Source: a virus. Taken from it: DNA of 64,000 bases. The position numbers and the translations under genes were made by a program. The DNA is taken from IMG/VR virus record IMGVR_UViG_3300025120_000001, positions 1-64,000 of that record; one strand, given 5' to 3'. The notes under the pieces are model-generated. The model was not told the DNA's origin. It did not search any database and saw nothing but the letters and a program-made list of their open reading frames with translations. Positions within the stretch are counted from its first letter, which is position 1. The number at the start of each line of letters is the position of its first letter. Positions 12,654 through 31,373 of this stretch are shown piece after piece.

Positions 12654-13067
12654 CTGATCATTTACATGTTTATCCATCTTAACATTCATTTCTTTAATTT
12701 TATCAAAGTCATTATCAGCAACTGCTTTAAACAGCTCATCAACCAGAGATTGATCTATGGTAGCATCAACAGATATGTTTAGACCTTGTTTATAAGCATG
12801 TCCTTTAAGAAGTTGTTGCAGTGAAAATATGGTGTATAAATGAGCCTGTTCTTCAGTAAAAGGTTCTTTTTCTAGATCTAGTGTTCCGTCAATGTATCTT
12901 TCAAACTTTTTAAAGTAGGATGTAAGGACACTAGGATCTTTCATCTTATCAATAAAAAATACCATGAGGTCTTCAAGGCCTTTTATATACGTGGTGCTTA
13001 GAACTACGTTTTCAATATTTTTTGAAAAATCATACGTATCTTGCACCTTAACTTTATCTTCAGACAT
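12645..13067 (-). CDS. Hypothetical protein; the only minus-strand gene in the early/middle block
   Basis: Start moved to MSEDKVK (13067); no competing + ORF; TATATTTA box just upstream on the - strand. Confidence 0.7.
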   Translation of the reverse strand: MSEDKVKVQDTYDFSKNIENVVLSTTYIKGLEDLMVFFIDKMKDPSVLTSYFKKFERYIDGTLDLEKEPFTEEQAHLYTIFSLQQLLKGHAYKQGLNISVDATIDQSLVDELFKAVADNDFDKIKEMNVKMDKHVNDQLS

Positions 13068-13095
13068 AATTGTAAACTTTATAAATATAAATTTA

Positions 13096-13815
13096 ATGAA
13101 TAAAATCAATATAAACATAAATGACGTAAGAAAAAAATTTAAAGACTCTTTCCTTTCAACCGGGTGGAGTAAGATAATGAATCCTATTATTGATTCAGAA
13201 GAATTTGAGATTGCGGTATACAAGTTAAAGTCCTATGTAGAAAATGATCAAAGATTTACGCCTAAATTGTCTCAAATATTCAATGCATTTGTGTATTGTC
13301 CTTATGAAGATTTAAAAGTAATATTTATAGGACAAGATCCATATCCGCAATTAGGAGTTGCTGATGGTATTTCATTTAGTTGTAGTAATAATGATAAACC
13401 TCAACCTTCTCTGAGATATATATTTAAAGAATTAGAAAGACAGTATGCAGCATTTAGAACTAATGACTTACTGTATAATCCATTAGATTTAAAAAGATGG
13501 AGTAATCAAGGTGTGCTAATGTTAAATACAGCATTTACTGTAGAAATAGGTAAAATAGGATCTCATTATGATGTATGGAAACCAATTACTAAAATGATAT
13601 TAGATTCAATAAATGAAGATAAAAAAGATATTGCTGTTGCCTTATTAGGTAAAAAAGCAGAAGAGTGGCATTTGAGATTACATTCTCAAAAAATATTTAA
13701 AGCACCTCATCCGGCATCAGCTGCATATAAAGGTGGAGTATGGAATTCCGGTGATATTTTTCTTAAGATAAATGAGCATTTAAGAGCTCAAGGGATAGCC
13801 CCGATAATTTGGTAA
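13096..13815 (+). CDS. ung: Uracil-DNA glycosylase (family 1)
   Basis: GQDPY, PSL, QGVLMLN, HPAS motifs; start moved to 13096. Confidence 0.93.
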   Translation: MNKINININDVRKKFKDSFLSTGWSKIMNPIIDSEEFEIAVYKLKSYVENDQRFTPKLSQIFNAFVYCPYEDLKVIFIGQDPYPQLGVADGISFSCSNNDKPQPSLRYIFKELERQYAAFRTNDLLYNPLDLKRWSNQGVLMLNTAFTVEIGKIGSHYDVWKPITKMILDSINEDKKDIAVALLGKKAEEWHLRLHSQKIFKAPHPASAAYKGGVWNSGDIFLKINEHLRAQGIAPIIW

Positions 13816-14863: not shown

Positions 14864-15063
14864 TACATTCAGAATATAATGAAGAGGAAACTGATCAAGA
14901 TTTAGTCAGAGAGTATGCAGAAACTCTAATCAAAGAAATAAAAGACAGTACAATGAATAGACAACAGGCTATACACGCAGCATCAATAACTGTACAAAGA
15001 TTAGCTAAAGAAACTGCAAAAAAGTTTTATTATCAAGTAATGCAATATTTAATGGACAAATGA
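14860..15063 (+). CDS. Hypothetical protein
   Basis: Coupled ORF. Confidence 0.6.
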   Translation: MIHSEYNEEETDQDLVREYAETLIKEIKDSTMNRQQAIHAASITVQRLAKETAKKFYYQVMQYLMDK

Positions 15064-16016
15064 GTAAAATGAAACCGGCCTGGGATGGTCAATTTAGTGC
15101 TTTTAATGAAGCATTGAAATATATGGTAAAAAGACAATCCGGTGAGGAGAAGTCAATATATACACCTTGGCCTAAGTTTAATGACGCTATGACAGATGGA
15201 TTAGAGTGGAATACTCTAACTGTAATTGGTGGAAGACCTGGTTCAGGTAAGACTCTTATTAAAGATCAGATTATTAGAGAATCATTTACCTTAAATCCAG
15301 ATGATGACTTTAGAGTTTTAGAGTTTCAATTTGAGATGGTTGGTAGAACATCAGCATTGCGTGAATTTAGTTCTTTAACTGGTAAAACATATAAAGAATT
15401 ATGCAGTGCAGGTAGTAAAATATCTACGGATACAATTAACGCCTGTCATGTATATGCAAAAGATAGAGTTAAAAATCCAGTTGATATAGTAAGTAGACCA
15501 ATGACCGTTAATCAAATGCGTGAGCAGTTAGATGCTTATATGGATTTGCATAAGGGTAAAAAAACAATGATAACATTAGATCATACTATACTTGTTAAGA
15601 GAGCTCCGTATCAGAATAACAGATTAGATATGTTATTTGAATTAGGTGAGTTTTTTACACAAGCTAAAAGGGACTATCCATGTTTGTTTATAGCGTTATC
15701 ACAACTTAATAGGAATATAGATAACCCGGAAAGAGCCATAGATGGTAAGTATGGAAATTATGTTTTAGAATCTGATATATTTGGTTCAGATGCCATGCTG
15801 CAACATGCTGATACATTAATTGGTATCAACAGACCAGCTAAGCAGAAGATTAGATATTATGGACCAGATAGATATATAATTAAAGATGATAGAACTTTAG
15901 TATTACATTTTCTTAAAGCAAGAAATGGTGATGCCAGAATGAGTTTTTTCAGAGGTGAGTTTGAAAAGATGCAAATAGCTGAAATGCAAACTCCAGAACA
16001 ACAAGACAGAAGATGA
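15060..16016 (+). CDS. DnaB-like replicative helicase
   Basis: GGRPGSGKT, FEM, LDH, LSQLNR, SD..GSDA..Q.AD, LKARNG. Confidence 0.9.
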   Translation: MSKMKPAWDGQFSAFNEALKYMVKRQSGEEKSIYTPWPKFNDAMTDGLEWNTLTVIGGRPGSGKTLIKDQIIRESFTLNPDDDFRVLEFQFEMVGRTSALREFSSLTGKTYKELCSAGSKISTDTINACHVYAKDRVKNPVDIVSRPMTVNQMREQLDAYMDLHKGKKTMITLDHTILVKRAPYQNNRLDMLFELGEFFTQAKRDYPCLFIALSQLNRNIDNPERAIDGKYGNYVLESDIFGSDAMLQHADTLIGINRPAKQKIRYYGPDRYIIKDDRTLVLHFLKARNGDARMSFFRGEFEKMQIAEMQTPEQQDRR

Positions 16017-16537: not shown

Positions 16538-17221
16538 ATGGCACAAAGCACATTAATAATCGCGGAGTCAGGCTCCGGTAAATCTACATCAGGTAGAAAT
16601 TTAGATCCTAAAGAAACATTTTGGATCAATATTGCAAATAAACCATTACCTTTTAAAGGTTGGAAGAAAAATTATACGTTAATTAGTAAAAGTAATCCCA
16701 AAGGTAATATGACAAATGCGTCATCAGCTGCTGGAATTATTAAAGCTTTGAAACATGTTAATGAAAATATGCCTCATATAACTAATGTAGTTATAGATGA
16801 TTGGCAATACATGTCTGCCTTTGAGTATTTTGATAAAGCTCAAGAAAAAGGTTATGATAAATTCACCTCAATCGCTACTAACCTAGCTCAGGTTGCAAAA
16901 TATCCAAAGGATTTGAGGGATGATTTATACTGTTTTTTTCTTACTCATTCAGAAGATTCAACAGATATGAATGGTCGTAGAAAAGTAAAAGCAAAAACTG
17001 TTGGTAAAATGATAGATAATGCTTTAACTTTAGAAGGACTATTTTCCATTGTATTATTTGGTAGAGTTATCAAAGAAGAAGATGGTACAATAAAGTATGG
17101 ATTTGAAACACAAACCGATGGGAATAACACTTGTAAGTCTCCCATGGATATGTTTGAAGAATCCTTTATAGAAAATGATTTACAATATGTAAAGGATTGT
17201 ATAATCAAATATGAACAATAA
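16538..17221 (+). CDS. AAA_24 / Sak4-like ATPase (recombination)
   Basis: AESGSGKST, VVIDDWQY, KTVGKMID, CKSPMDMF. Confidence 0.8.
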   Translation: MAQSTLIIAESGSGKSTSGRNLDPKETFWINIANKPLPFKGWKKNYTLISKSNPKGNMTNASSAAGIIKALKHVNENMPHITNVVIDDWQYMSAFEYFDKAQEKGYDKFTSIATNLAQVAKYPKDLRDDLYCFFLTHSEDSTDMNGRRKVKAKTVGKMIDNALTLEGLFSIVLFGRVIKEEDGTIKYGFETQTDGNNTCKSPMDMFEESFIENDLQYVKDCIIKYEQ

Positions 17222-17243: not shown

Positions 17244-17915
17244 ATGTTAAGTACTAAAGACATGTCTGCAGGTTCAGGCAAAGCAAGACCGGTAATTGGA
17301 GTTGGTAACCAGAAAATCAAAATTAATAGTATTACTTTTGATCAAACACCCTATGATAAAGAAGCATATAACGTTGTGTTACATGTAGAATCTGAACCAG
17401 TAGGTAGTGAATTTGAAGGATTTCTTATAGATCCTAATGATAAAACTGGGCCAAGATATAAAGGTCAAGTAGGAAGAGTAAGATTAAGCCCTTACCCATA
17501 TAAAGATACTACTTTACCAAGTGGTAGAGAAATCAGTAGAGATACTGAAGTATTGAAATCTATGATTTTCTTAAGTGAAGTTCTCAATAAGAGAGATGAT
17601 CTTGATAATATTGAAGCTGACACCGTTGAAGACTTTATGACTTCAGCTAATACAGTTTTATCAGGAGATACATATATCAATGCATGTGTTGGCGGAAGAG
17701 AATGGGAAAATAAAGAAGGTTATGTAAACTATGACCTATATTTACCAAGAAATTCTAAAGACGGAGTTGCATTGGAAACTTTGGAAATGGAAAACTCTAG
17801 ATTATATGAATTTTCTAAGAAAGATCATGTAAGAGAACTTCAAAATAAGAAGTCATCTCCAACAACAGACAACTTTGAACCTGCATCAACAGCAGGTGAA
17901 GATTTTGATCTGTAG
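17244..17915 (+). CDS. Putative ssDNA-binding protein
   Basis: Follows the Sak4-like ATPase; acidic tail ending EDFDL. Confidence 0.55.
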   Translation: MLSTKDMSAGSGKARPVIGVGNQKIKINSITFDQTPYDKEAYNVVLHVESEPVGSEFEGFLIDPNDKTGPRYKGQVGRVRLSPYPYKDTTLPSGREISRDTEVLKSMIFLSEVLNKRDDLDNIEADTVEDFMTSANTVLSGDTYINACVGGREWENKEGYVNYDLYLPRNSKDGVALETLEMENSRLYEFSKKDHVRELQNKKSSPTTDNFEPASTAGEDFDL

Positions 17916-17982: not shown

Positions 17983-18960
17983 ATGATAAATACTAAAAAC
18001 TTAGTTACTAATGAATCATCTGTTCCAAGTTACTGGGTCTTTCAGTATTATTTAAATCTCAGTGAACATCTAAATGGACAGGATATAAAGATAAAATCTC
18101 TTTGGAATCCGGCAGAACGTACTCCAAGTATGTGCTTATATGTAGATAAGCCAAAGCGTTGTTATATGTATAAAGATTTCTCTACAGGTAAAGGGGGTAA
18201 TAAAATTAATTTAGTTCAAGATGTATTTGATTTAAACTATTCAGGTGCTATTGAAAAGATGATTAATGATTACAACAAATTTGTAGCGCAAAATGGATGT
18301 GCTAAGATTGACTTTACACCTCAGCCTAAATGGGAGATAGAACTTATTAATAACCGTGAGTGGACACAAGATGATGCAAATTATTGGCTCCAGTATAGGA
18401 TTGGAAGTTCTGCATTATCTAAATATAATGTTAAACCTATTAATTACTATAATCTAGTAAAAGATGTATCCGGAGCTACAGAAAAGAAAACTATACGTGG
18501 CAAACATATTTATGGTTACTATAATAAGCATGGTCAGATATTTAAAATATATCAACCACTTAGAGATGGTTTTAAATTTTATAAAATTGAATCATATACA
18601 CAAGGATTAGATCAGTTAGAGTATAAACAGCCTTATTTGGTAATATGCTCATCTCTGAAAGATGCAATGTGTTTAAAGAGTTTCGGTTATAATGTTGAAG
18701 TAATTGCTCCAGATAGTGAGAACACAGTTATAAAACCTTATTTAATTGAAAATTTAAAATTAAAATACAAAAAAATAATTACACTTTTTGACAATGATAC
18801 TGCAGGTAAAGCTGCTATACAGAAGTATGAAAAACTTTACGGTATACCGGGTACTTTCCTGGAATTAAGTAAGGATATTTCAGACGCTGTAAAAGAACAT
18901 GGTTGGAAGAAAGTGCATGAAAGTTTAAAAGTTATACTTAAAAACACTATACACATATGA
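17983..18960 (+). CDS. DNA primase (DnaG-like, TOPRIM)
   Basis: ERTPSM..YKDFSTGKGG N-terminal domain; SSLKD; FDNDTAGK; KDISD. Confidence 0.85.
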   Translation: MINTKNLVTNESSVPSYWVFQYYLNLSEHLNGQDIKIKSLWNPAERTPSMCLYVDKPKRCYMYKDFSTGKGGNKINLVQDVFDLNYSGAIEKMINDYNKFVAQNGCAKIDFTPQPKWEIELINNREWTQDDANYWLQYRIGSSALSKYNVKPINYYNLVKDVSGATEKKTIRGKHIYGYYNKHGQIFKIYQPLRDGFKFYKIESYTQGLDQLEYKQPYLVICSSLKDAMCLKSFGYNVEVIAPDSENTVIKPYLIENLKLKYKKIITLFDNDTAGKAAIQKYEKLYGIPGTFLELSKDISDAVKEHGWKKVHESLKVILKNTIHI

Positions 18961-19367
18961 AATGGTTTATCCCAGGAAATGTACCATCAAGTAAAAATGG
19001 AAGACGTTGGACAGGCAAGTACTTCATAGCTAGCAAAACAGTTATGAAATATAGAAAAGATACTAAATCTCTCTATCAAAAATATGCTCCGCAGTTTCAA
19101 AAGGAACTAAAGAAGCATAAACTACCGGTCAAAATTGCTTTTACTTTTATTCGTGGTACTAAACATAAGTTTGATTACATAAATCCTGCACAAACAGTGC
19201 AAGATGATATGGTAACCTACGGTTGGATTGAAGATGACAACATGGTTAACATATTACCTGTGTTTCATCCTTATAAATATGACAAAGAAAAACCAGGAGT
19301 AATAATTGAAATACTAAAAAATGGCAAAAGAACCAATGAAAATGCTTCCAGTAATAGGAAGACTTAG
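18957..19367 (+). CDS. Holliday junction resolvase (RusA-like)
   Basis: IPGNVPSSKN, FDYIN..Q..QD.M…IEDDN. Confidence 0.7.
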   Translation: MKWFIPGNVPSSKNGRRWTGKYFIASKTVMKYRKDTKSLYQKYAPQFQKELKKHKLPVKIAFTFIRGTKHKFDYINPAQTVQDDMVTYGWIEDDNMVNILPVFHPYKYDKEKPGVIIEILKNGKRTNENASSNRKT

Positions 19368-19671
19368 AGATTACGGAGTTGCAACAGTTAGAGCAGACTT
19401 TGATGGTCAAGGTGATTCAGGAGAAATTCATGAAATAACATTTCTTGATGTAGATGATGATGAAATTGATGAGGATTTAAGATCAGCTGATCTTGAAGAT
19501 TATATATATGATCTCATAGAATCAGCAGTTAATGATGCTCACGGTGATTGGGTAAATAATGATGGTGGCTACGGTCATATCAACATGCGCCTAAATACTT
19601 GTGAAGTAGATTGCGCATTCTATCAAAGGACAGTTGAAGAGCATGATTGGTTTTGTAATTTATTTTACTAA
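19321..19671 (+). CDS. DUF6878-like acidic protein
   Basis: GV..V…FDG.GDSGEI and DW.NNDGGYG motifs. Confidence 0.7.
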   Translation: MAKEPMKMLPVIGRLRDYGVATVRADFDGQGDSGEIHEITFLDVDDDEIDEDLRSADLEDYIYDLIESAVNDAHGDWVNNDGGYGHINMRLNTCEVDCAFYQRTVEEHDWFCNLFY

Positions 19672-20015
19672 TGCATCCTCATATTCATGCAAAATCCTCA
19701 GTAAAAAAGTGGGGAGGTATTCCAGAAGATTACATTAAAATACATGATTGGTTTGATGAAACAAAAAAATGGATAGGTCATTCTATGCATAGATTGTATC
19801 GTCATCACAGTGAAGGTATATTTGAATGTGAAATAATATTTGGAAAGAAATTTCAAAACTCAGACGGCAAGACCGTATATACAAGATATGTTGGTGAACA
19901 ACATGTCAAAGAAGATTGCAATAATTATGTGCCTTCAGCTAAAGAATGGATTGTACATATGAATAAGAAAGAAAAACCGCAATGGATGATAAAAACCTTA
20001 AAAATTGAAGATTAA
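19671..20015 (+). CDS. DUF6915-like His-rich protein
   Basis: HP..HAKSS.KKWGG..EDY..IH.WFD…HR..RHHSEGIFECE…GEQHVKED. Confidence 0.75.
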   Translation: MHPHIHAKSSVKKWGGIPEDYIKIHDWFDETKKWIGHSMHRLYRHHSEGIFECEIIFGKKFQNSDGKTVYTRYVGEQHVKEDCNNYVPSAKEWIVHMNKKEKPQWMIKTLKIED

Positions 20016-20396
20016 ATGGCAGAAACAAAAGAAATAGTAATAATAGACATAGAAGTTTTTAAAAATTTAAGCCAAATGCTGCAGTCAAGCACTAACGAAG
20101 ATGTACAAATGGCATTAGAAACAATAAAAAATTTAAATCCTTGTGATGAGATAATTAGATTATTTCTAAAAAAAACCACATATCGTGGCAGAAGTGAATT
20201 ATTGAATATGATTGGTCAAAATCAGTGGAATTATAATGATTTAACTATGAAAGAGATTTATGAATGTATAAAAACGTCAAAAAACTCCAATATTGAAAAT
20301 ATAAAAAAAATATATGAAACTTTGGTTGTTGAACATTTTGAACATTTAACTGAAGACTATAATTTCATAGAAGGAAAATATAAAATAATATGGTAG
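20016..20396 (+). CDS. Small helical protein sharing a motif with the BRCT-like proteins
   Basis: FKNLSQMLQSSTNEDVQMALETIKNL. Confidence 0.65.
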   Translation: MAETKEIVIIDIEVFKNLSQMLQSSTNEDVQMALETIKNLNPCDEIIRLFLKKTTYRGRSELLNMIGQNQWNYNDLTMKEIYECIKTSKNSNIENIKKIYETLVVEHFEHLTEDYNFIEGKYKIIW

Positions 20397-21544
20397 CAAA
20401 CTTAGTATCAAAAGCAAGTAAAACTTTAATATTCACAGAGCCCTTTTACGGGCTCTTTTTAGTTGGCCTTAATAAGGTTTATAGAGAAGATATTCCAACA
20501 GCAGGTGTTAGTAAACACGGTATTGGAGCACAATTAGCAATCAATCCAAAATTTTTTAATGATTTATCAGATAAACATAGAATTGGATTATTGAAGCATG
20601 AATTATTGCATATATCATTTGGCCATCTGCTTACACGTGAGCGTTATGATGACAAGAAGCTATTTAATATAGCAGCTGATATAGAGATAAATCAATATAT
20701 AGATTCTGATTACCTTCCAGATGGTGGTTTAACCTTGGATACATTTCCTGAATTAGATCTTCCGGTAAGAGCAGGTACAGATGTATATTATGATTTGTTA
20801 AGTCAAGCAAAGCAAGATGGAACATGCCCATCATTAGATGACTTACTTGGTCAAATGGATGGTACAACACCTCAATGCCATGGTACATGGGATGAGTTTG
20901 AAGACTTACCAGAAGCTGAGAAAAAGTTAATTGAAAAACAAATTGAACATAGGATCAAAGAAAACGCAGAACAAACTGAAAAAAGACAAGGGAATATTCC
21001 AGGTGAATTGCAAGATCTTATTCAAAGACTGCGTCATGTAGAACCGGCCAAGTTTGATTGGAAAGCGTACCTAAGAAGATTTGTTGGTAATTCCTCAGTT
21101 GTATATACAAAAAAGTTAAGACGTAAATACAATAAGAGATATTTTGAAAACCCAGGTTTGAAGATTAAGTTCAAAAATCATATATGTGTAGGTGTTGATA
21201 CATCCGGATCAGTAAGTAATGATGAATTGCAAGAGTTTTTCTCTGAATTGAGTCATATGCATAAGACTGGACATAAGATAACTATAGTACAGTGTGATAC
21301 ACAAATTAGTTCTGTAAAAGAATTTAATCCAAAATGTGATTGGGAAATACATGGTAGAGGTGGTACATCATTTCAACCAGTAGTAGATCATTATAATGAA
21401 AAAAAGAGTTATACAGCTCTTATATATTTTACAGATGGAGAAGCTTGGGCTCCGGAAAACTGTCCCAATAATACACTTTGGGTTCACAGCAGTCATTGCA
21501 ATGTCAATGAAGAACTACCAGGACAAAAAATACAATTAAATTAA
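20390..21544 (+). CDS. Metallopeptidase-VWA protein (DUF2201-like)
   Basis: KHELLH (HExxH), NIAADIEIN; VWA MIDAS DTSGS, GGT, FTDG. Confidence 0.9.
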   Translation: MVANLVSKASKTLIFTEPFYGLFLVGLNKVYREDIPTAGVSKHGIGAQLAINPKFFNDLSDKHRIGLLKHELLHISFGHLLTRERYDDKKLFNIAADIEINQYIDSDYLPDGGLTLDTFPELDLPVRAGTDVYYDLLSQAKQDGTCPSLDDLLGQMDGTTPQCHGTWDEFEDLPEAEKKLIEKQIEHRIKENAEQTEKRQGNIPGELQDLIQRLRHVEPAKFDWKAYLRRFVGNSSVVYTKKLRRKYNKRYFENPGLKIKFKNHICVGVDTSGSVSNDELQEFFSELSHMHKTGHKITIVQCDTQISSVKEFNPKCDWEIHGRGGTSFQPVVDHYNEKKSYTALIYFTDGEAWAPENCPNNTLWVHSSHCNVNEELPGQKIQLN

Positions 21545-21559
21545 AAAGAAAGAAAGATT

Positions 21560-22834
21560 ATGGCACAAGTAAATTTAAATGTTGATGATTTAAACGGCTT
21601 CATGAAGCACATTATAAGTAATAATAGATTTCTACAGGAACAAGGTAAATTACCAGTTGCAGTAGAAGTTCTAGGTGAATCAGGTATTGGTAAAACATCT
21701 ACCGTAAAGCAGATTGCTGAGACTCACGGTATGGATTTTGTAAAATTAAATTTAGCTCAGATTGAAGAGCTTGGTGATCTTGTTGGTTTTCCAATAAGAG
21801 AGTTCCAAATGTATAAAGAAAAAGTTGTATCCGTAAATGGAAAAACTGACACTATAAACTATGGCGCTCAGTCTGCAGCATCAGAAGATGTAGCAAAATT
21901 GTCATCTAATAATACTGTTACAAAGAAGATTGGGCAGTGGGTAAGCGAGCTTGCAGTTAGTGATTACTTAAACAATGGTTACAAGATGACTGGTAAAAAC
22001 CGGATGTCATACTGTGCTCCGGAATGGATTGCAGGTAAAAAGAAAGGTGGTATCCTCCTTTTGGATGATTGGAACCGTGCAGATGTTAGATTTATTCAAG
22101 CCGTTATGGAGCTGATAGATCGTCAGACGTATATCTCTTGGTCACTTCCTGAAGATTGGCATATTGTATTAACCGCAAATCCGGACAACGGAGACTATAT
22201 GGTTAATTCTGTTGATGCAGCTCAAAAGACACGTTATATCACTGCTAATTTGCAGTTTGATGTAAACTGTTGGGCTCGTTGGGCAGAGGAAGCAGGTATT
22301 GATACAAGATGTATTAACTTTTTGTTATTACATCCAGAGCTTGTTACACAAGAAACAAATGCTCGTGCAATTACCACATTCTTTAATGCAATATCAAGTT
22401 TTGAAAACTTTGAAGATAGCTTACCTTATATTCAAATGATTGGAGAAGGTAGTGTTGGTGATGAGTTTGCGTCTATGTTTACCGTGTTTATTAATAACAA
22501 GTTAGACAAGTTGGTTACACCAAAAGATTTATTGACTCATGATAATGAGGCATATATTCTTGGTGAATTAACGGGATGTGTTGGTAAAGATGATGATTAT
22601 CGTGCTGATATTGCATCAACTATGGCAACAAGACTCGCTAACTTTGCTGTTGTATATTCAAAGGATAATACAATCAATCAAAAGATTACTGATAGATTGG
22701 AAAAACTATGTACAAAAGATTACTTTACAAATGATCTTAAGTATTTAGTTGTGAGAACTATATTTAACGGGAATAAGCAAAAGTTTAATAAACTTATGAT
22801 GAAACCTGAAATAATTAAAATGACTGTAAAGTAA
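21560..22834 (+). CDS. MoxR-like AAA+ ATPase
   Basis: GESGIGKT, ELGDLVGFP, LLDDWNRA, LTANP. Confidence 0.88.
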   Translation: MAQVNLNVDDLNGFMKHIISNNRFLQEQGKLPVAVEVLGESGIGKTSTVKQIAETHGMDFVKLNLAQIEELGDLVGFPIREFQMYKEKVVSVNGKTDTINYGAQSAASEDVAKLSSNNTVTKKIGQWVSELAVSDYLNNGYKMTGKNRMSYCAPEWIAGKKKGGILLLDDWNRADVRFIQAVMELIDRQTYISWSLPEDWHIVLTANPDNGDYMVNSVDAAQKTRYITANLQFDVNCWARWAEEAGIDTRCINFLLLHPELVTQETNARAITTFFNAISSFENFEDSLPYIQMIGEGSVGDEFASMFTVFINNKLDKLVTPKDLLTHDNEAYILGELTGCVGKDDDYRADIASTMATRLANFAVVYSKDNTINQKITDRLEKLCTKDYFTNDLKYLVVRTIFNGNKQKFNKLMMKPEIIKMTVK

Positions 22835-22835
22835 T

Positions 22836-23873
22836 ATGGCAGGAAAAAATGTTTATCAAAAGCATGATGATGATGCACTGAAACATTTTGGTTTGGATAA
22901 TGACCCCTTTTATGGGGTCATTACTTCTGACCAAGTTGATGATGTGCTTATAACACAGGATGAAACTACTTTTAAAAAAGTAAGAGATATACTATCTGAT
23001 GAAAGTATAGATGGTACTCAAATAAAGAACCATAAAAGGGCATTTGTATTGCCTGGATGTTCTGTTACACTAGATAGATTGAAGGCTGCTTGCAAAGAGC
23101 ATAAAGTCACTATAACAAATGACTATGAAAAAGCAGATTTTGTAATAACTCATGATTCTTTTTATGAGAAGTTTAGTAATGGTGATAAAATAAAAATTAC
23201 CAAGCTTATGTATAGATTATGGAATTTTGAAGCTTTTAATGGTGAAGATATACCCTCTAATAGGTCTTGCAGTATAATTGAAAATCATCCTCAGCCTACT
23301 ATATGGGATGATAAATGGAATGATAGAAGTATTACTAGCTATAATTGTTCTAACCCTATAAGTTTAATGGACGAATGGGGTATTACAGGATTAGCTTTAA
23401 ATATTGCTTATCTAATAGATACAGGTGAGATGAATGTCATAAGTGAAGAGAGTATTTTGCATGCTTCTGCAAATCAGATAGATTTAACTGAAGATTTAAT
23501 TAAAGAATTAGAAACTTGGGTTCAATCATATGATGATGAAAATACAGCTATTGCAGCTAAAATATTACCTACTGTTGATTATTCAAAAAAACCCCATTTA
23601 TTATGGGAGCTAGCTAAATCTTTATGTAGTTATACATATAAATTTAATAGAGATAAAGATGTGAAATATTGGTTGGAAAAATCAGAACTTAATGATTTAT
23701 ATCATACTTCCGCAGAAGATATGATTATAAAACTTGAGGAAGAAGAAAAACTAACTAATGAATCATTTAGATATCTAGAAAAAATAGTACGTACAGAAAT
23801 CTCCATACACAACAGAGAACTTTATGTATTTAAAGTAAGTGTTAAACCAGAATATAAAAAATACTTAAAATGA
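22836..23873 (+). CDS. BRCT-like domain protein 1
   Basis: AFVLPGCSVTLDRLKAACKEHKVTITNDYEKADFVIT fits BRCT beta1-alpha1-beta2-beta3. Confidence 0.55.
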   Translation: MAGKNVYQKHDDDALKHFGLDNDPFYGVITSDQVDDVLITQDETTFKKVRDILSDESIDGTQIKNHKRAFVLPGCSVTLDRLKAACKEHKVTITNDYEKADFVITHDSFYEKFSNGDKIKITKLMYRLWNFEAFNGEDIPSNRSCSIIENHPQPTIWDDKWNDRSITSYNCSNPISLMDEWGITGLALNIAYLIDTGEMNVISEESILHASANQIDLTEDLIKELETWVQSYDDENTAIAAKILPTVDYSKKPHLLWELAKSLCSYTYKFNRDKDVKYWLEKSELNDLYHTSAEDMIIKLEEEEKLTNESFRYLEKIVRTEISIHNRELYVFKVSVKPEYKKYLK

Positions 23874-25096
23874 AAGATTTAAGCAATGTGTATTTCCTAG
23901 ATATATTTCTAGGAGATGACACATATAAAAAAACAAACTCCGGGCTTCGTGCTTCAGGAGTGGCTACTGCAGAAGAACTTAATAATGCTTCATATAATAG
24001 CCCTATAAAAACATCAAAACAACTCTTTTCTCCTTGCGGAAACTTTGGCTATTTTAAAGCCATAGTTGAAACTAAAGATATACATAAAAGGAGGGGAATA
24101 TTTGCTAGTGTATTTCAAACAGGTTTTAAAGAATTAAATGCGGTTGATTTAAAGGATAAGTCCTTCTATAGGACTCCTAGTTTAGATCTACCACAAATGA
24201 AAGTTCAAAACTTAAAAGACAAACACAACATATCCATCACTAGAAAAAGAGATATAGCAGATTACATTATTACATCAGATAAATATATGGAAAACCTATT
24301 TAATTGGGCATACCAGGATGTATATACTATCAATCAGTATAAATCATATTTAAAACATATAGATAATAACATTAATGATGATGTTAGGTTGAAGTTAAAT
24401 AATTTAGCAGATCATATAGAAAATCATGATCAGGAAGCACACATTTACCTCAGCGTTAGATTTGAATCATGGAATTATTCTAGTCAGATTAAAAATGTAT
24501 TTCAAGTATCTTCAGGTCCTTTAAAAGACGGAGGTCAAACGCCTCATTATTGTAAAGATGAAGAGATGTTTTATTTATTACAAAATGCAAGTTTATCTGA
24601 TAAACTAGTCAAAGACACAGCTTTATTACATCTTTGTAATGAGGATTCGGTTGTTTTAACTGCCAAAGATTGTAAAACAATATCTGATATGATTAATTCA
24701 GATGATGATCAAAGTTCTAGTCTGGCATTAGAAATGATGGCTAACTGTAACGTTGAAGCATCTTATGATAAGATTGCATTAATATTTGCATTTTATGATC
24801 ATAAACTTAGATATTGCTCAAATTGGAATCATATTAATGTAAAATCATTGAGAAAAACAATGAATGGAGTTAATTCAATAGATGATAGGTCTGGTCACGG
24901 ATTTAATAGTTTGGTAAAACACTTGCATCAAAAAAATGTACTTACAGAATTTGCTGTTGGTGCCATTTCAAATAAAATGTGCAAGACAATACTAAAATAT
25001 GTTCATTTGACCAGTGAAGGTTCCGTGTTTGATGTAAAAGCATCAGATTTAAAGTTAAAATCTGAATTTACTGTTTCAGATGACTTACCATTTTAG
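23870..25096 (+). CDS. BRCT-like domain protein 2 (paralogue)
   Basis: FYRTPSLDLPQMKVQNLKDKHNISITRKRDIADYIIT; C-terminal LALEMMANCN. Confidence 0.55.
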   Translation: MKDLSNVYFLDIFLGDDTYKKTNSGLRASGVATAEELNNASYNSPIKTSKQLFSPCGNFGYFKAIVETKDIHKRRGIFASVFQTGFKELNAVDLKDKSFYRTPSLDLPQMKVQNLKDKHNISITRKRDIADYIITSDKYMENLFNWAYQDVYTINQYKSYLKHIDNNINDDVRLKLNNLADHIENHDQEAHIYLSVRFESWNYSSQIKNVFQVSSGPLKDGGQTPHYCKDEEMFYLLQNASLSDKLVKDTALLHLCNEDSVVLTAKDCKTISDMINSDDDQSSSLALEMMANCNVEASYDKIALIFAFYDHKLRYCSNWNHINVKSLRKTMNGVNSIDDRSGHGFNSLVKHLHQKNVLTEFAVGAISNKMCKTILKYVHLTSEGSVFDVKASDLKLKSEFTVSDDLPF

Positions 25097-25117
25097 GGGT
25101 AGCCATAATTGATTGTT

Positions 25118-25158
25118 ATGGGCAGGTGTTTCTGTGAACATCTGCCCACCCCTTTTTT
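25118..25158 (+). terminator. Intrinsic terminator closing the primase-MoxR operon
   Basis: TGGGCAGGTGTT/AACATCTGCCCA, then CCCC and T6. Confidence 0.65.
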
Positions 25159-25171
25159 AAAAATTAAAATT

Positions 25172-25537
25172 ATGAGAGATAAAATAATAAAAGTGATAGA
25201 AAGGCATGGCCTATGGTTTTTTTGCCTATGGTGTTTGTTTATAGTATTTGCGCTAACATCTTGCAATGATATAGAAAGAAACCAGGAGAGAAACAAACTT
25301 ATTGGTATTGCATGGGATAAAGCAGAAATGGTTGATGTTAAATACTATAAGAGTAAAAGTAGTGACCGATTTTTGCAAAGCTTTGAGATGGATGGATATA
25401 AGTTTGTGGTATTTAATAATGGATATGGCAGTGCCATGCAAGCAATACCTTTAAATAATAATGCAGAGTATATTCGTATGTTAGAAGAAGAGAATCAATT
25501 ACTAGGAGAAACATTAGCGGAGTATGAGTCAAGATAA
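25172..25537 (+). CDS. Putative lipoprotein
   Basis: Start moved to MRDKII; ALTSC lipobox. Confidence 0.6.
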   Translation: MRDKIIKVIERHGLWFFCLWCLFIVFALTSCNDIERNQERNKLIGIAWDKAEMVDVKYYKSKSSDRFLQSFEMDGYKFVVFNNGYGSAMQAIPLNNNAEYIRMLEEENQLLGETLAEYESR

Positions 25538-25691: not shown

Positions 25692-26085
25692 ACATCCAAA
25701 ACAAACCAGAGAGCATGGAAAAAAATATGCTCCTTATATAAAAGAGATAATTGCATCACATCTCAGTGGAATGACTGATTTAGAAATGTCTAACATTCTT
25801 GAAAGAACATGCACAAACATGTCAAGAAAAAGAACAGATGTAATGAGAGAGTATACTTTACAACAAGTACAAAATGTAAACTTTCTTTTATGGGAAGTTA
25901 CTAAACTTACATTAGAAAAAGAACTTCTAATGGAAAGACTTGATTCTGACTTTGGTGTAATTGGTATAGAAATTTCAGATAAAGACATAATAGAAAGATT
26001 AATGAAAAATTTTGAAATCTCTAAAGAAGAATTAAAAGAATTTAAAGATCAAAAATTTAAAGATTATTTAGAACAACATGATTGA
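25675..26085 (+). CDS. Hypothetical protein
   Basis: ORF track. Confidence 0.6.
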   Translation: MKMGNKHPKQTREHGKKYAPYIKEIIASHLSGMTDLEMSNILERTCTNMSRKRTDVMREYTLQQVQNVNFLLWEVTKLTLEKELLMERLDSDFGVIGIEISDKDIIERLMKNFEISKEELKEFKDQKFKDYLEQHD

Positions 26086-27064
26086 TAAACAAAAAGAAGA
26101 GGTGTTTTATGCTAAAGATTTTAACTTTAGTTATTCCTCTATAAACAAATTAATGTTTTCCCCATCCTTATTTTATAAGGAGTATATATTACAGGACCGT
26201 GAAGTGCGTACTGATAAACATTTAGTTGAAGGTAAGCTTGTACATTGTCTATTATTAGAGCCTGAAAATCTTGAAGAAAAATTTAAGATTGTACCAGGCA
26301 AGACTCCTACAGATAATGTAAGAAAAGTATTACATATTATATCTGAAAAATATACGTCTGAAAAATTAGCAGACATACCAGATTTTATGATAACAGATAC
26401 TTTAAAAGAAGTAAACCTATATCAGTCACTGAAGACTGATGAGGCAAGAATTAGTAAAATTAAAATTGATGATTATGATTTATATTGGAAGTTTATTCTT
26501 AATAAAAATGTGGACATTGTTGACCAAGATACCTTGGCTCGTTGCAATAGTTACGTTGACATATTAAAAAAAAATAAAGAAGTAAGTGATTTATTAAATA
26601 TAGAGAAGACTGATTTTGAACTTGATGATTCTGCAAAATTTGTAGAAAAATATTTAAAATGTGATCTTAAGAACCATAATTTTGGTTTACACGGTTATGT
26701 TGATTTTTACAAGATAGATCATGAAAATAAACAAGTTGTAATTGCTGATTTAAAAACAACAGGGAAGAGCATTGCTGATTTCCCAGAAAGCGTTGAATAT
26801 TGGAATTATTATATTCAGGCAGCTGTATATTTTAAGTTGGTTTATGAAAATTTAGATCCTAAATTTAAGGATGATTACAAAATTTTATTTAAGTTTGTTG
26901 TGATAGACAAGTATAATCAAGTTTATGTATTTGATGTACTTGACGAGAGCATGAGGGCATGGGCGTTTAGTTTAAGTGATATATTAAATAGAGCGGAATA
27001 CCATTATACAGAGAAAGATTATAGCCTTCCTTATGACTTTGCAACAAATAAAATAAGACTATAA
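26078..27064 (+). CDS. PD-(D/E)XK exonuclease (RecE/ExoVIII-like)
   Basis: SYSS, G..VHC..LEP, GYVDF..IADLKTT, Y.IQAAVY. Confidence 0.85.
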   Translation: MIDKQKEEVFYAKDFNFSYSSINKLMFSPSLFYKEYILQDREVRTDKHLVEGKLVHCLLLEPENLEEKFKIVPGKTPTDNVRKVLHIISEKYTSEKLADIPDFMITDTLKEVNLYQSLKTDEARISKIKIDDYDLYWKFILNKNVDIVDQDTLARCNSYVDILKKNKEVSDLLNIEKTDFELDDSAKFVEKYLKCDLKNHNFGLHGYVDFYKIDHENKQVVIADLKTTGKSIADFPESVEYWNYYIQAAVYFKLVYENLDPKFKDDYKILFKFVVIDKYNQVYVFDVLDESMRAWAFSLSDILNRAEYHYTEKDYSLPYDFATNKIRL

Positions 27065-28165: not shown

Positions 28166-28336
28166 ATGATGGAAACAATAGTTCAAATGAAAGAGAGACT
28201 AATGACTTTAGCTCTTAAAAAACATAAGACATTAAAAAAAGCAGCCGATGCTTTAGGAATTACTGATATAACATTACGCACATTTAAAAATAAACTTAAA
28301 AAAGAAAAAAATGAATCATTGGATAATGGATTATGA
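28166..28336 (+). CDS. Fis-like HTH protein (56 aa, not in track)
   Basis: LALKKHKTLKKAADALGITDITLRTF resembles the Fis/HTH_8 helix-turn-helix; overlaps the pol start. Confidence 0.6.
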   Translation: MMETIVQMKERLMTLALKKHKTLKKAADALGITDITLRTFKNKLKKEKNESLDNGL

Positions 28337-30311
28337 AACCTTATCTAATTGTTTTGTAGCAGTTTTTCGTCATTATAAAACTTCTGAACAGAAGATTTAT
28401 ATAGTACATGACTTGCAAAATGATTTTGATAAATTCATAGAGTTTTTACATCAAAATAGAGATGAGAAGCAATGGCATATATCTTATAATGGATTAGCCT
28501 TTGATGCTCAAGTCACTCAGTATATACTAAACAACCATGAGTTGTGGTCTAATATGTCCGGTTGTGCAATAGCAGAAGTCATTTATGCATTTGCTCAAGA
28601 AACAATAGCTAGACAGAATAGAAAAGAATGGGGTATCTTTGCGCCATGGCATTTACAGATAGGTCAAATAGACATATTTAAAATGCATCACTGGGATAAT
28701 CCAGCCAAGCGTTCTAGTCTTAAATGGATACAGTATAGCATGGATTGGGAAAACTTACAGGACATGCCTATTGAGCATACTGCAAAAATTGAGACACAAG
28801 AAGAACTTGATATTATAGTTGGATACTGCATTAATGATGTAGAATCTACTAAAGCTATATTTGATAGATCTAAGTCTCAAATTAAACTGCGCAAAGAACT
28901 TACGGGTAAGTATAACATTGATTTATTTAGTGCGTCTGAACCACGCATTGCTAAAGAATTGTTTGCATACTTTTTAAGTAGAAAGTTAAATGTAAGCGCT
29001 AGAGAGATAAAGAGTATGAAAACTTATAGGAATGTGATTAAGGTTAAAGATCTTATACTTCCTTACATAGAGTTTAAGTCTCCTATATTTCAACAGGCTT
29101 TAAATAAATTTAATACTTTAGAGTTGGATGCAATGCAGCTAAAGGGTCAGTTTAAATATGAGCTTGAGCACAAAGGTGTTCACACTACTTTTGCATTAGG
29201 CGGCATACATGGCGCTAGAAAGAGCGGTGTTTATAAATCAGATGATGATCATATTATAATGTCTTCAGATGTTACCAGTTTCTATCCTAATTTAGTTATA
29301 AGGAATAACTGGTCACCAGCTCATTTCCCCAAGGAAGAGTTTTGTGCGCTATATGAATGGATTTTTGATGAAAGGGTTAAAATCCCAAAGTCTAATCTTA
29401 TGAATTACGTGTATAAAATTATACTTAATTCAATATTTGGTTTAAGCAATGAGGAAAATAGTTTCTTTTATGATCCGGAATTATGTATGCGTATAACTCT
29501 TAATGGCCAATTAAGCCTTATGATGTTGTATGACATGATACTTGACGGAATACCTGAAGCATTTGGTTTATTGCAAAATACAGATGGAGTTGAGATTAGA
29601 ATCCCAAGAGATAAAAAAGATCTTTACCTTAAGATTTGCAAAGAATGGGAGGATATAACTGATCTAAACCTTGAGCATGATACATATCAAAAGATCGTTC
29701 TTGGTGATGTCAATAATTACATTGGTATTAATGATTTTAAATCTGTAGATATAACTACATGGAGAAAAACTAAAGAGGATAACCCTCATTATTTATTTAA
29801 AGTAAAAGGTTCTGATTTTATGTATGCCCCTGTTAAACTCAAGGGTAGATATAACTTTCATGAACTTGCACTACATAAAAATAAGTCTAAGTTGGTAGTT
29901 AAAAAAGCTATCTACAATTATTTTGTTAAAGATATCTTACCTGAAGATTATCTTGCAAAGAATAGAAATATACTTGATTACTGTATAGGTATGAAATCTA
30001 AAGGTAAATGGAAACAAGTAGCTAGATCTACTCCAAATGGTAAATACCATGAGGAGGATTTGCAAAAGACTAACAGATATTATATATCTAAACAAAGTAG
30101 TAAGAGCGTTAAAATAACTAAAGTCAATAAAGATGACGGTAGGCAAATACAATGTGAAGCCGGAAAATGGATGCAGACTATATTCAATGAAATAAAGCTG
30201 CAGCCTAAGTGGGAAGATTATGATATTGATTTAGGATATTATAGTAAAGCCATTGAATCTGAAATAGACTCCATATTAAATGTTAGTATTAACCAATTAG
30301 AACTATTTTAA
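28311..30311 (+). CDS. Family B DNA polymerase with 3'-5' exonuclease
   Basis: ExoI DYET, ExoII YNG..FD, ExoIII YC.ND; motif A DVTSFYPN, motif B KIILNSIFG, motif C NTDG. Confidence 0.93.
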   Translation: MNHWIMDYETLSNCFVAVFRHYKTSEQKIYIVHDLQNDFDKFIEFLHQNRDEKQWHISYNGLAFDAQVTQYILNNHELWSNMSGCAIAEVIYAFAQETIARQNRKEWGIFAPWHLQIGQIDIFKMHHWDNPAKRSSLKWIQYSMDWENLQDMPIEHTAKIETQEELDIIVGYCINDVESTKAIFDRSKSQIKLRKELTGKYNIDLFSASEPRIAKELFAYFLSRKLNVSAREIKSMKTYRNVIKVKDLILPYIEFKSPIFQQALNKFNTLELDAMQLKGQFKYELEHKGVHTTFALGGIHGARKSGVYKSDDDHIIMSSDVTSFYPNLVIRNNWSPAHFPKEEFCALYEWIFDERVKIPKSNLMNYVYKIILNSIFGLSNEENSFFYDPELCMRITLNGQLSLMMLYDMILDGIPEAFGLLQNTDGVEIRIPRDKKDLYLKICKEWEDITDLNLEHDTYQKIVLGDVNNYIGINDFKSVDITTWRKTKEDNPHYLFKVKGSDFMYAPVKLKGRYNFHELALHKNKSKLVVKKAIYNYFVKDILPEDYLAKNRNILDYCIGMKSKGKWKQVARSTPNGKYHEEDLQKTNRYYISKQSSKSVKITKVNKDDGRQIQCEAGKWMQTIFNEIKLQPKWEDYDIDLGYYSKAIESEIDSILNVSINQLELF

Positions 30312-30455: not shown

Positions 30456-31373
30456 ATGAAAAGTAAAATAGAAGTAACAAGAGATTTTGTTATAAATGCA
30501 CCGTTGCCATCTCATGGAGATACATACACGGTTATATCACACAAATTTGTAATTGATAACACTAAGCAAATGCTTGCTAATAGTGGATTTCTAATTACAA
30601 ATGAAATTTATAGAGCTAACAATCGCGGAGAAGTAGCTCAAGGAATATATCATATAAAGCCAATATCAGGACAATCTGATAGTGAGCTGGGTATGATGTT
30701 TGCTTGGACAAATTCTTATGATAAATCAATAAGATTTCAGTGCGCTATTGGAGCACATGTATTTGCATGTTCTAATGGAATGGTTTGCGGTGAGTTAAAC
30801 TATGCTAGAAAGCATACAGGAACTGCAGATGAAGAGATTAAAATGCAGATATCAAGTCAGATTAAGAATGCTCAGAAAGCTTTTGACAGAATAACGAAAG
30901 ATAGAGATAGTCTAAGAACTGTAGTTCTAAATAAGCAGCAACAAGCAGAGTTATTAGGGCGTATGTATTTTAATGAAGATCTTATTAGTCCTAGACAAAT
31001 GACTTGCGTAAAAGATGAAATGGAAACCCCTTCTTTTGATTACCAATGTGATCAAGAAAATGCATGGGCTTTCTATAATCATATAACGCATTCATATAAG
31101 TCTGTGCACCCTAGATCTTGGTTAAGTGATACTAAAAACTTTCATGATTTTATGATGGCCAATGTATTAAAAGGTATGGGTATTACCCAACAAGATACCA
31201 TTAATACAGAGGAGGAAGTAGAAACTATGACTGAAGAAGAATTATCATCACAATTACATGGTGTAGATAATAACCCTGAAGTAGTTATGGTTGATTCTGA
31301 AGAGCCAATAGCAGATAGTATAGGTAACGTAGATTACCAAGAAGTTGATGAAGATTTTGACTTTGAAATTTGA
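30456..31373 (+). CDS. DUF932/DUF945-like protein
   Basis: NSYD.S..F..A.G..VFACSNGMV.G…RKHTG; acidic tail. Confidence 0.7.
   Translation: MKSKIEVTRDFVINAPLPSHGDTYTVISHKFVIDNTKQMLANSGFLITNEIYRANNRGEVAQGIYHIKPISGQSDSELGMMFAWTNSYDKSIRFQCAIGAHVFACSNGMVCGELNYARKHTGTADEEIKMQISSQIKNAQKAFDRITKDRDSLRTVVLNKQQQAELLGRMYFNEDLISPRQMTCVKDEMETPSFDYQCDQENAWAFYNHITHSYKSVHPRSWLSDTKNFHDFMMANVLKGMGITQQDTINTEEEVETMTEEELSSQLHGVDNNPEVVMVDSEEPIADSIGNVDYQEVDEDFDFEI

Follow-up and report, generated by a model that had tools for sequence, protein, structure and literature searches.

In the MoxR-VWA systems midasin-Rsa4/Ytm1, CbbQO, NorQD, and BchID, the metal ion-dependent adhesion site (MIDAS) grips an acidic residue of the client while the ATPase ring applies force. 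Here, we analyzed a phage locus that encodes such a pair together with a conserved partner. It lies in a window of 64 kb that forms the beginning of IMG/VR virus record IMGVR_UViG_3300025120_000001, a complete 112,134-bp record with direct terminal repeats that comes from an uncultured marine phage of a clade of uncultured crAss/N4-like phages. Relatives of the pair have been reported in other phages. Chan et al. (2014) listed gp24 (“unknown”) and gp25 (“vWFA domain”) among the 14 core genes of N4-like phages and placed both among the middle transcripts, and in roseophage RPP1 the genes for virion proteins adjoin the gp24/gp25 homologues (PMC4193335). Iyer et al. (2021) described a MoxR AAA+ ATPase and a vWA protein with an N-terminal metallopeptidase in group 2.2 jumbo phages, for which they proposed a role in virion assembly, and cited a MoxR-vWA system that is required for growth of the tails of Acidianus two-tailed virus (PMC7824862). 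The pair is thus already known, and what is new here is its conserved partner, a protein with BRCT-like and ARM-like domains.

An initial annotation of the window had described seven overlapping or nearly abutting genes, downstream of a primase and a resolvase and closed by a single terminator, which encode an acidic DUF6878-like protein, a His-rich DUF6915-like protein, a helical protein, an HExxH peptidase fused to a VWA domain, a MoxR AAA+ ATPase with a DD Walker B motif, and two paralogous BRCT-like proteins. We recovered the seven open reading frames (ORFs) on the + strand, here called g1 to g7, with junctions that range from a 7-nt overlap to a 15-nt gap by their coordinates, and this description of the layout and of the individual genes holds up well. 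The further claim that all seven genes form one system does not. Our analysis instead points, with moderate confidence, to a real unit of three to five genes that consists of g4, g5, and the BRCT/ARM partner (present here as both g6 and g7), often with g3, and that would form a split midasin-like machine for remodeling and cleaving clients brought to it by adaptors.

The peptidase gene, g4 (20390-21544), encodes a 384-aa homologue of N4 gp25 in which a predicted zincin-like metallopeptidase precedes a VWA/MIDAS domain. Both Pfam domains score well above their cut-offs, with E 1.3e-20 and 74.6 bits against 23.2 for DUF2201_N (PF13203) and E 3.5e-18 and 66.4 bits against 26.4 for the VWA domain DUF2201 (PF09967), and the protein also matches phrog_1314 (E 3.7e-69). 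The zincin motif HELLH occupies residues 70-74 and is followed by H79, while the VWA motif DTSGS lies at residues 270-274; H70, E71, H74, and H79, as well as the full MIDAS set of D270, S272, S274, T326, and D349, are invariant in 129-131 aligned sequences. The ATPase gene, g5 (21560-22834), lies directly downstream, an arrangement found in nearly all of the loci that we surveyed, and encodes a 424-aa MoxR/midasin-class AAA+ protein homologous to N4 gp24. Although g5 falls below the Pfam cut-offs for AAA_3 (18.2 bits against 27), AAA_5 (18.1 against 22), and AAA (20.6 against 21.2), it has a Walker A motif (GESGIGKT) and a Walker B motif (LLLDD) and matches phrog_1297 (E 3.9e-34), and the profile of its clade (A5) matches the AAA domains of midasin in three stretches (E 7e-27) and the MoxR structure 2r44 (E 9.6e-4). 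Walker A and the L-D-D of Walker B are invariant in 132 aligned sequences, in all of which the Walker B motif reads hhhLDD, with Asp replacing the catalytic Glu. Judged by these motifs and profile matches, g4 and g5 are a MoxR-VWA-peptidase pair, and because their catalytic and metal-site residues are invariant in 129-132 relatives, both are probably under selection as active enzymes.

The initial annotation was also right that the pair occurs in other phages, as DUF2201 is found in 522 GenBank phage records, most of them N4-like and N4 itself among them; tblastn of g4 matches N4 gp25. None of the 50,697 GenBank records is a near cultured relative of this phage, and the highest tblastn identities are ~30% for g4 and ~23% for g5. 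Relatives are very abundant in marine and other metagenomes: two IMG/VR scans gave 329 and 578 confirmed loci, and the protein library contains 3036 relatives at E values up to 1e-3. Scans of IMG/VR with P0258, P0201, and P0269, which represent distant MoxR proteins, returned no locus. In some close relatives the DUF2201 and MoxR genes are separated by an additional ORF of 70-128 aa (L043 6398-6784, L044 6593-6979, and L062 6377-6589), and in two others (L047 and L064) the DUF2201 or g6 genes are truncated or split; these may be mobile insertions or signs of decay. In many phage records the phrog_1314 label gives DUF2201 metallopeptidase-VWA proteins the name “HNH endonuclease”, for example N4 gp25 (L083 5932-7074). 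Judging from the zincin HExxH and VWA MIDAS content of these proteins this label is wrong, and annotators should regard it as misleading for the whole DUF2201 family.

The two genes that follow the pair encode its partner proteins. The 345-aa product of g6 (22836-23873) is predicted to have an N-terminal beta unit, a BRCT-like domain with an insertion (~residues 61-214), and ARM/HEAT-like helices from ~residue 215 onward, while g7 (23870-25096) encodes a 408-aa paralogue with predicted BRCT-like and ARM-like domains, and is the member that adjoins MoxR across the clade. These assignments come from confident AlphaFold2 models built from family alignments, with pLDDT 90.5 for g6 and 80.7 for g7, and each model independently shows a BRCT-like domain followed by an ARM-like domain. 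The paralogy is distant, with a BLAST E value of 0.003 over 28 residues and an hhalign probability of 72% (E 3.3e-5) for the C-terminal halves (140 residues). Immediately upstream of the pair, g3 (20016-20396) encodes a 126-aa helical protein, and its stop codon overlaps the start of g4. Residues 5-51 of g3 align with residues 258-307 of g7 (hhalign of profiles A1 and A3, 91.7% probability, E 7.6e-7). On this evidence g3 is a short, free-standing copy of the initial ARM-like repeats of g7, and by profile comparison one helical domain is common to g3, g6, and g7.

None of the three proteins belongs to a Pfam, PHROG, NCBIfam, or PADLOC family. Pfam BRCT is absent from g6 and g7 at threshold and was matched by only one of 26 relatives of g6 (E 0.017) and by none of 18 relatives of g7. 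Searches of the PDB gave nothing at E < 1e-3 for either model with Foldseek and nothing useful for g4, g6, or g7 with phmmer, and the sole match in the ESM Atlas, at 0.77, is to an unnamed cluster. The g6 model has full-length matches in BFVD (E 4e-7 to 8e-6) to uncharacterized proteins of a “CrAss-like virus”, of “Podoviridae sp. ctz6O13” (two paralogues), and of an uncultured Caudovirales phage. We also found 652 protein relatives of g6, several of them from TARA sources and one named as coming from an uncultured marine virus, and tblastn of g6 and g7 against the 50,697 GenBank phage records found no relative. Compared with BRCT repair proteins such as XRCC1, MCPH1, BRCA1, REV1, PARP1, and bacterial LigA, g6 and g7 differ in having an insertion of ~80 residues and a fusion to ARM repeats. 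We considered a low-molecular-weight phosphatase identity for g6, given C75-x5-R81 and weak PTPase/EIIB Pfam matches in six of 26 relatives, and rejected it, because relatives have G, A, S, or H at the position of this Cys. In the databases and literature that we searched, there is no earlier description of the BRCT/ARM partner, of the small paralogue g3, or of the SSB-like tip of g7 (discussed below), and our literature search found no paper that mentions both crAss-like phages and MoxR.

Evidence that the partner belongs with the pair comes from gene neighborhoods. We compared a close set of 80 loci, in which MoxR is 77-93% identical, and a wider survey of 84 more diverse loci that includes lineages at ~38-42% MoxR identity, 77 of which have at least 1.1 kb of sequence past MoxR. 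These are IMG/VR loci found through the ATPase, and g7-like genes without the ATPase were detectable only through the tblastn search of GenBank phages, which found none. The gene order in the close set is primase, RusA, g1 and g2 or nothing, a small ORF in the position of g3, g4, g5, g6, g7, and nuclease. In the wider survey, a g6/g7-like gene directly follows MoxR in 74 of the 77 loci, often with gaps of 1-2 nt, and among the three exceptions, L089 shows a marginal match there (E 8e-5 in a small database). These loci fall into two contexts. Context A (46 loci) is the replication block, while the neighbors in context B (28 loci, with contigs as long as 160 kb) are unrelated to those of context A, at least in the 20 loci that share the layout of L104, and comprise a NUMOD homing endonuclease, DUF6884, AAA_28, and a large terminase gene ~3 kb downstream of the triad. 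Only the triad of g4, g5, and a g7-like gene is common to both contexts, and it persists down to ~38% MoxR identity. A g3-like small ORF precedes g4 in ~49 of the 77 loci and is missing from the context-B loci inspected, and the duplication into g6 and g7 is confined to the window's own family. In the 155-160-kb phages of context B, the triad is followed directly by a DUF6884 protein (E 7.6e-42; L104 8271-8747; ORFs of 155-164 aa) and by a 79-aa ORF, which may be a further lineage-specific partner. In one lineage at 38% MoxR identity, a 238-aa protein (L090 4057-4773) overlaps the start of the DUF2201 gene; it is not g3-like and by eye contains the motif LFQDPYH, like that of family-1 uracil-DNA glycosylases (UDGs).

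A second feature of the partner is the C-terminus of g7, which ends in ...TVSDDLPF, with the DDLPF pentapeptide encoded at 25079-25093. No other ORF in the 112-kb genome has such an ending. DDDIPF/DDDLPF is the C-terminal tip with which the bacterial SSB (single-strand DNA-binding protein) recruits genome-maintenance partners (PMC5872125, PMC5531588), and copies of it have been reported in prophage DUF669 proteins (PMC13687109). Like these, g7 carries its SDDLPF ending on what the model suggests is a flexible tail, with low confidence (pLDDT < 50) at residues 405-408, and unlike bacterial SSB it is not an oligonucleotide-binding (OB)-fold SSB. The idea that g7 is itself the SSB of the phage is not supported, as PF00436 (SSB) was not found anywhere in the genome and no OB-fold was among the results of the fold searches. 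A [DE][DN]LPF ending is kept in much of the g7 family, and an acidic stretch with a terminal Phe (DDLPF, EDLPF, DIDWF, or DFEWF) is found at the end of 37 of the 116 distinct g7-like proteins, compared to none of 59 g6-type proteins. The tail thus recurs in particular lineages without belonging to the core. Elsewhere in the window, a 223-aa protein without a Pfam match (17244-17915, + strand), encoded directly 3' of the AAA_24 gene, has the acidic tail ...AGEDFDL, and its position and tail suggest that it is the phage's own single-strand DNA-binding protein; its counterparts in L089, L091, and L095 end in DDDLFDVE, ADNTEFAW, and ANAPEFDL.

Taken together, these features can be arranged into a working model of the cassette. 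The BRCT/ARM proteins g6 and g7, and g3 where it is present, would select and present the client, which may be a target protein or a complex bound to DNA. An acidic residue on either the adaptor or the client would then be gripped by the VWA MIDAS, in the manner of midasin-Rsa4, CbbQO-Rubisco, and NorQD, the g5 ATPase ring would pull and thereby remodel or extract the client, and the zincin domain of g4 would cut it. In this phage the DDLPF tail of g7 might dock onto host partners of SSB, or might itself serve as a ligand of the MIDAS. While the identity of the g4 and g5 domains, their homology to N4 proteins, their invariant residues, and the order of the triad are direct observations, we infer the adaptor role, the contact between the MIDAS and an acidic residue, the cleavage of the client, and the mimicry of the SSB tail.

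Several observations weigh against this model. The pair occurs in N4 and in Moorella phage MTATph1 with no detectable relative of g3, g6, or g7, so it can work without a BRCT/ARM partner or uses unrelated ones. We did not identify the canonical phosphate-pocket residues of BRCT domains in g6 or g7. More than half of the g7-like proteins lack the acidic-Phe tail, as do the more distant lineages L089-L095, and it therefore cannot be essential to the core mechanism. An alternative, with which the first of these points also agrees, is that the known pair is the whole of the system, and that g3, g6, and g7 are syntenic neighbors that act independently, for example as replication accessory proteins. 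The absence of g3 from about one third of the loci would fit this, as would the fact that the block from primase-RusA to nuclease-polymerase is collinear throughout the close family, which makes synteny weak evidence there. Nevertheless, the g4-g5-g7 triad stays intact between contexts A and B while all other neighbors differ, it is retained to ~38% MoxR identity with start and stop codons that abut or overlap, and in the sampled loci g7-like genes occur only beside this ATPase clade, with no relative of g6 or g7 in the GenBank phage records. We consider independent action of the neighbors quite unlikely.

The cassette evolves unevenly, and in the 80 close loci the identities of g6 and g7 are 26-76%, compared to 66-93% for g4 and g5. 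Such a difference is what would be expected if g6 and g7 were adaptors that track variable targets. It also invites a reading in which the cassette is a degrader used in counter-defense or host takeover, with adaptors that capture host defense proteins or SSB-interacting repair enzymes, which would then be unfolded and cleaved. Conflict systems typically pair fast-evolving, duplicated adaptors with a conserved engine, and here the partner is duplicated in one family only and has variable C-terminal tips, one of which equals the bacterial SSB tail. However, neither PADLOC nor any other family links these genes to defense or anti-defense, and this reading is largely a narrower version of the adaptor-fed remodeling machine that we prefer; as a separate explanation we regard it as improbable. 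It would be bolder still to propose that the g4-g5 engine and its BRCT/ARM adaptors are an ATP-driven degrader or extractor aimed at host genome maintenance, in which the copy of the SSB tail on g7 captures SSB-interacting proteins (RecQ, RecJ, PriA, exonucleases, or polymerase subunits) for removal. We offer this as speculation, and consider it improbable as well, but if it were true, the same degrader logic with other adaptors would explain the N4 core genes gp24 and gp25.

The client of the preferred adaptor-fed machine could be a host genome-maintenance protein, a component of the phage replisome, or a virion protein. DNA metabolism is favored by the position of the cassette in a replication operon and by the SSB-type tail of g7, and the argument from replication is weakened because the context-B triad lies near a terminase gene rather than among replication genes. 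Assembly is favored by this proximity to the terminase and by the published proposal for the jumbo phages. A stronger form of the latter would make the pair a virion-assembly chaperone and maturation protease whose substrates would be structural or ejected proteins that it folds, assembles, or trims, for example the giant 5366-aa and 1929-aa proteins encoded in this window, with the BRCT/ARM proteins as assembly co-chaperones. It draws on the role proposed by Iyer et al. (2021) for the group 2.2 pair (PMC7824862), on the location of the context-B triad ~3 kb upstream of the large terminase gene, on the virion-protein genes beside the gp24/gp25 homologues of RPP1 (PMC4193335), and on the presence of giant proteins in both this phage and N4. 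On the other hand, the cassette here lies inside a replication/recombination operon that runs from primase-RusA to a PD-(D/E)XK nuclease and a DNA polymerase, gp24 and gp25 are middle and not late genes in N4 (PMC4193335), and a BRCT-like fold with an SSB-type tail indicates DNA metabolism over capsid assembly. On balance, a dedicated role in virion assembly seems unlikely to us.

The two genes at the start of the seven-gene stretch behave differently from the cassette. The first, g1 (19321-19671), encodes an acidic 116-aa DUF6878 protein (PF21798, E 1.4e-10, 41.7 bits against a cut-off of 24.3), and g2 (19671-20015) encodes a His-rich 114-aa DUF6915 protein (PF21866, E 1.1e-39, 135.1 bits against a cut-off of 27), which also matches phrog_8143. 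They are present together in fewer than half of the 80 close loci and jointly absent from the rest, both are absent from every context-B locus, and in the five loci of other phages that we inspected DUF6915 has no MoxR/DUF2201 pair beside it. DUF6878 and DUF6915 are therefore a separate, facultative pair inserted upstream, outside the core, and it is on this ground that the seven genes cannot be treated as one system. The idea in the initial annotation that the extra genes act as adaptors survives in part; it fits g6 and g7, which co-occur with the pair in two contexts, and fails for g1 and g2, while g3 is frequent without being universal.

Beyond these loci, g1 has no tblastn match in GenBank phages, while DUF6915 is found in 127 other GenBank phage records, from phages of Streptomyces, Bacillus (Tsamsa-like), Gordonia, Sinorhizobium, Synechococcus, Ralstonia, and other hosts. 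In the five of these loci that we inspected (L082 Tsamsa, L085 Evy, L086 phiN3, L087 RsoM2USA, and L088 Synechococcus phage B3), DUF6915 has no MoxR/DUF2201 neighbor. There it adjoins RNA ligases, a PolyA_pol/CCA-adding-type enzyme, a metallophosphoesterase, tRNA clusters, or a DNA ligase. The gene upstream of it encodes ~120-140 aa in all five loci but Evy, where it encodes 68 aa, and the gene downstream encodes ~136-216 aa; none of these flanking genes has a significant Pfam family. RsoM2USA carries two copies of DUF6915. These neighborhoods may represent a small cassette linked to RNA or nucleic-acid repair. We rejected g1 as a general partner of DUF6915, as in Tsamsa, phiN3, RsoM2USA, and Synechococcus phage B3 the gene that lies upstream of DUF6915 fits neither Pfam DUF6878 nor the g1 hidden Markov model.

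The wider setting of the locus is a + strand replication/recombination operon in a window with a GC content of ~31%. Upstream of the seven genes this operon encodes a UDG (12964-13815), a DnaB-like helicase (15060-16016), a Sak4-like AAA_24 protein (16538-17221), a primase (17983-18960), and the resolvase RusA (18957-19367), which directly precedes g1 and overlaps it by 47 nt. Past g7, the operon is closed by a strong intrinsic terminator at 25119-25148 (annotated as a feature to 25157), in which a 13-pair stem with six GC pairs and a 4-nt loop is followed by the T run CCCCTTTTTT. Further downstream on the same strand are the PD-(D/E)XK nuclease (26078-27064) and the DNA polymerase (28311-30311). 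An ORF just past the terminator (25109-25537, +) encodes a hydrophobic stretch that ends in a lipobox-like LTSC (...FIVFALTSCND), and its product is likely a lipoprotein; because its listed TTG start overlaps the terminator stem, its true start is probably an internal Met near 25172. The gene that comes directly after that of the DNA polymerase encodes a DUF932-family protein (E 7e-13; 30456-31373, +) whose C-terminus is strongly acidic (...DEDFDFEI). The two giant proteins of 5366 aa and 1929 aa are encoded on the minus strand of the window and match the scale of the N4 virion RNA polymerase.

The interest of this locus lies in what it may reveal about the pair. The MoxR ATPase and VWA-peptidase are part of the 14-gene N4-like core and recur in jumbo phages; a partner with predicted protein- or DNA-binding folds that is tied to the pair, and that in one family also carries an SSB-tail interaction peptide, offers a first handle on what the pair acts on. 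The g6 and g7 proteins and the DDLPF peptide are concrete baits for the client, and a split midasin-like extractor with a built-in protease is a testable model.

Compared to known systems, the closest cellular parallels are midasin/Rea1-Rsa4/Ytm1, CbbQ-CbbO, NorQ-NorD, RavA-ViaA, and BchI-BchD, which, like g5 and g4, combine a MoxR/midasin-class AAA+ ring with a VWA MIDAS. These remodelers act on ribosome precursors or metalloenzymes, however, and have neither a fused peptidase nor a BRCT/ARM adaptor. The pair of the group 2.2 jumbo phages has the same architecture as g4 and g5 and was seen as a chaperone and co-chaperone, although no BRCT/ARM partner is described in that work (PMC7824862), and the cassette studied here instead sits in the replication operon of a 112-kb phage. 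The N4 proteins, which are encoded by core genes of the Schitoviridae, differ in several respects: their identity to g4 and g5 is only ~21-27%, the gene order is reversed, the Walker B motif of gp24 is DE where that of g5 is DD, g5 has an insertion of ~90 residues relative to gp24, and this phage has g3/g6/g7-like partners that are not detectable in N4. Even so, gp24 (the ATPase) and gp25 (the vWFA/DUF2201 protein) belong to the same two families as g5 and g4 and are also encoded by adjacent genes, and in both phages the pair is expressed with, or placed among, the genes of DNA metabolism.

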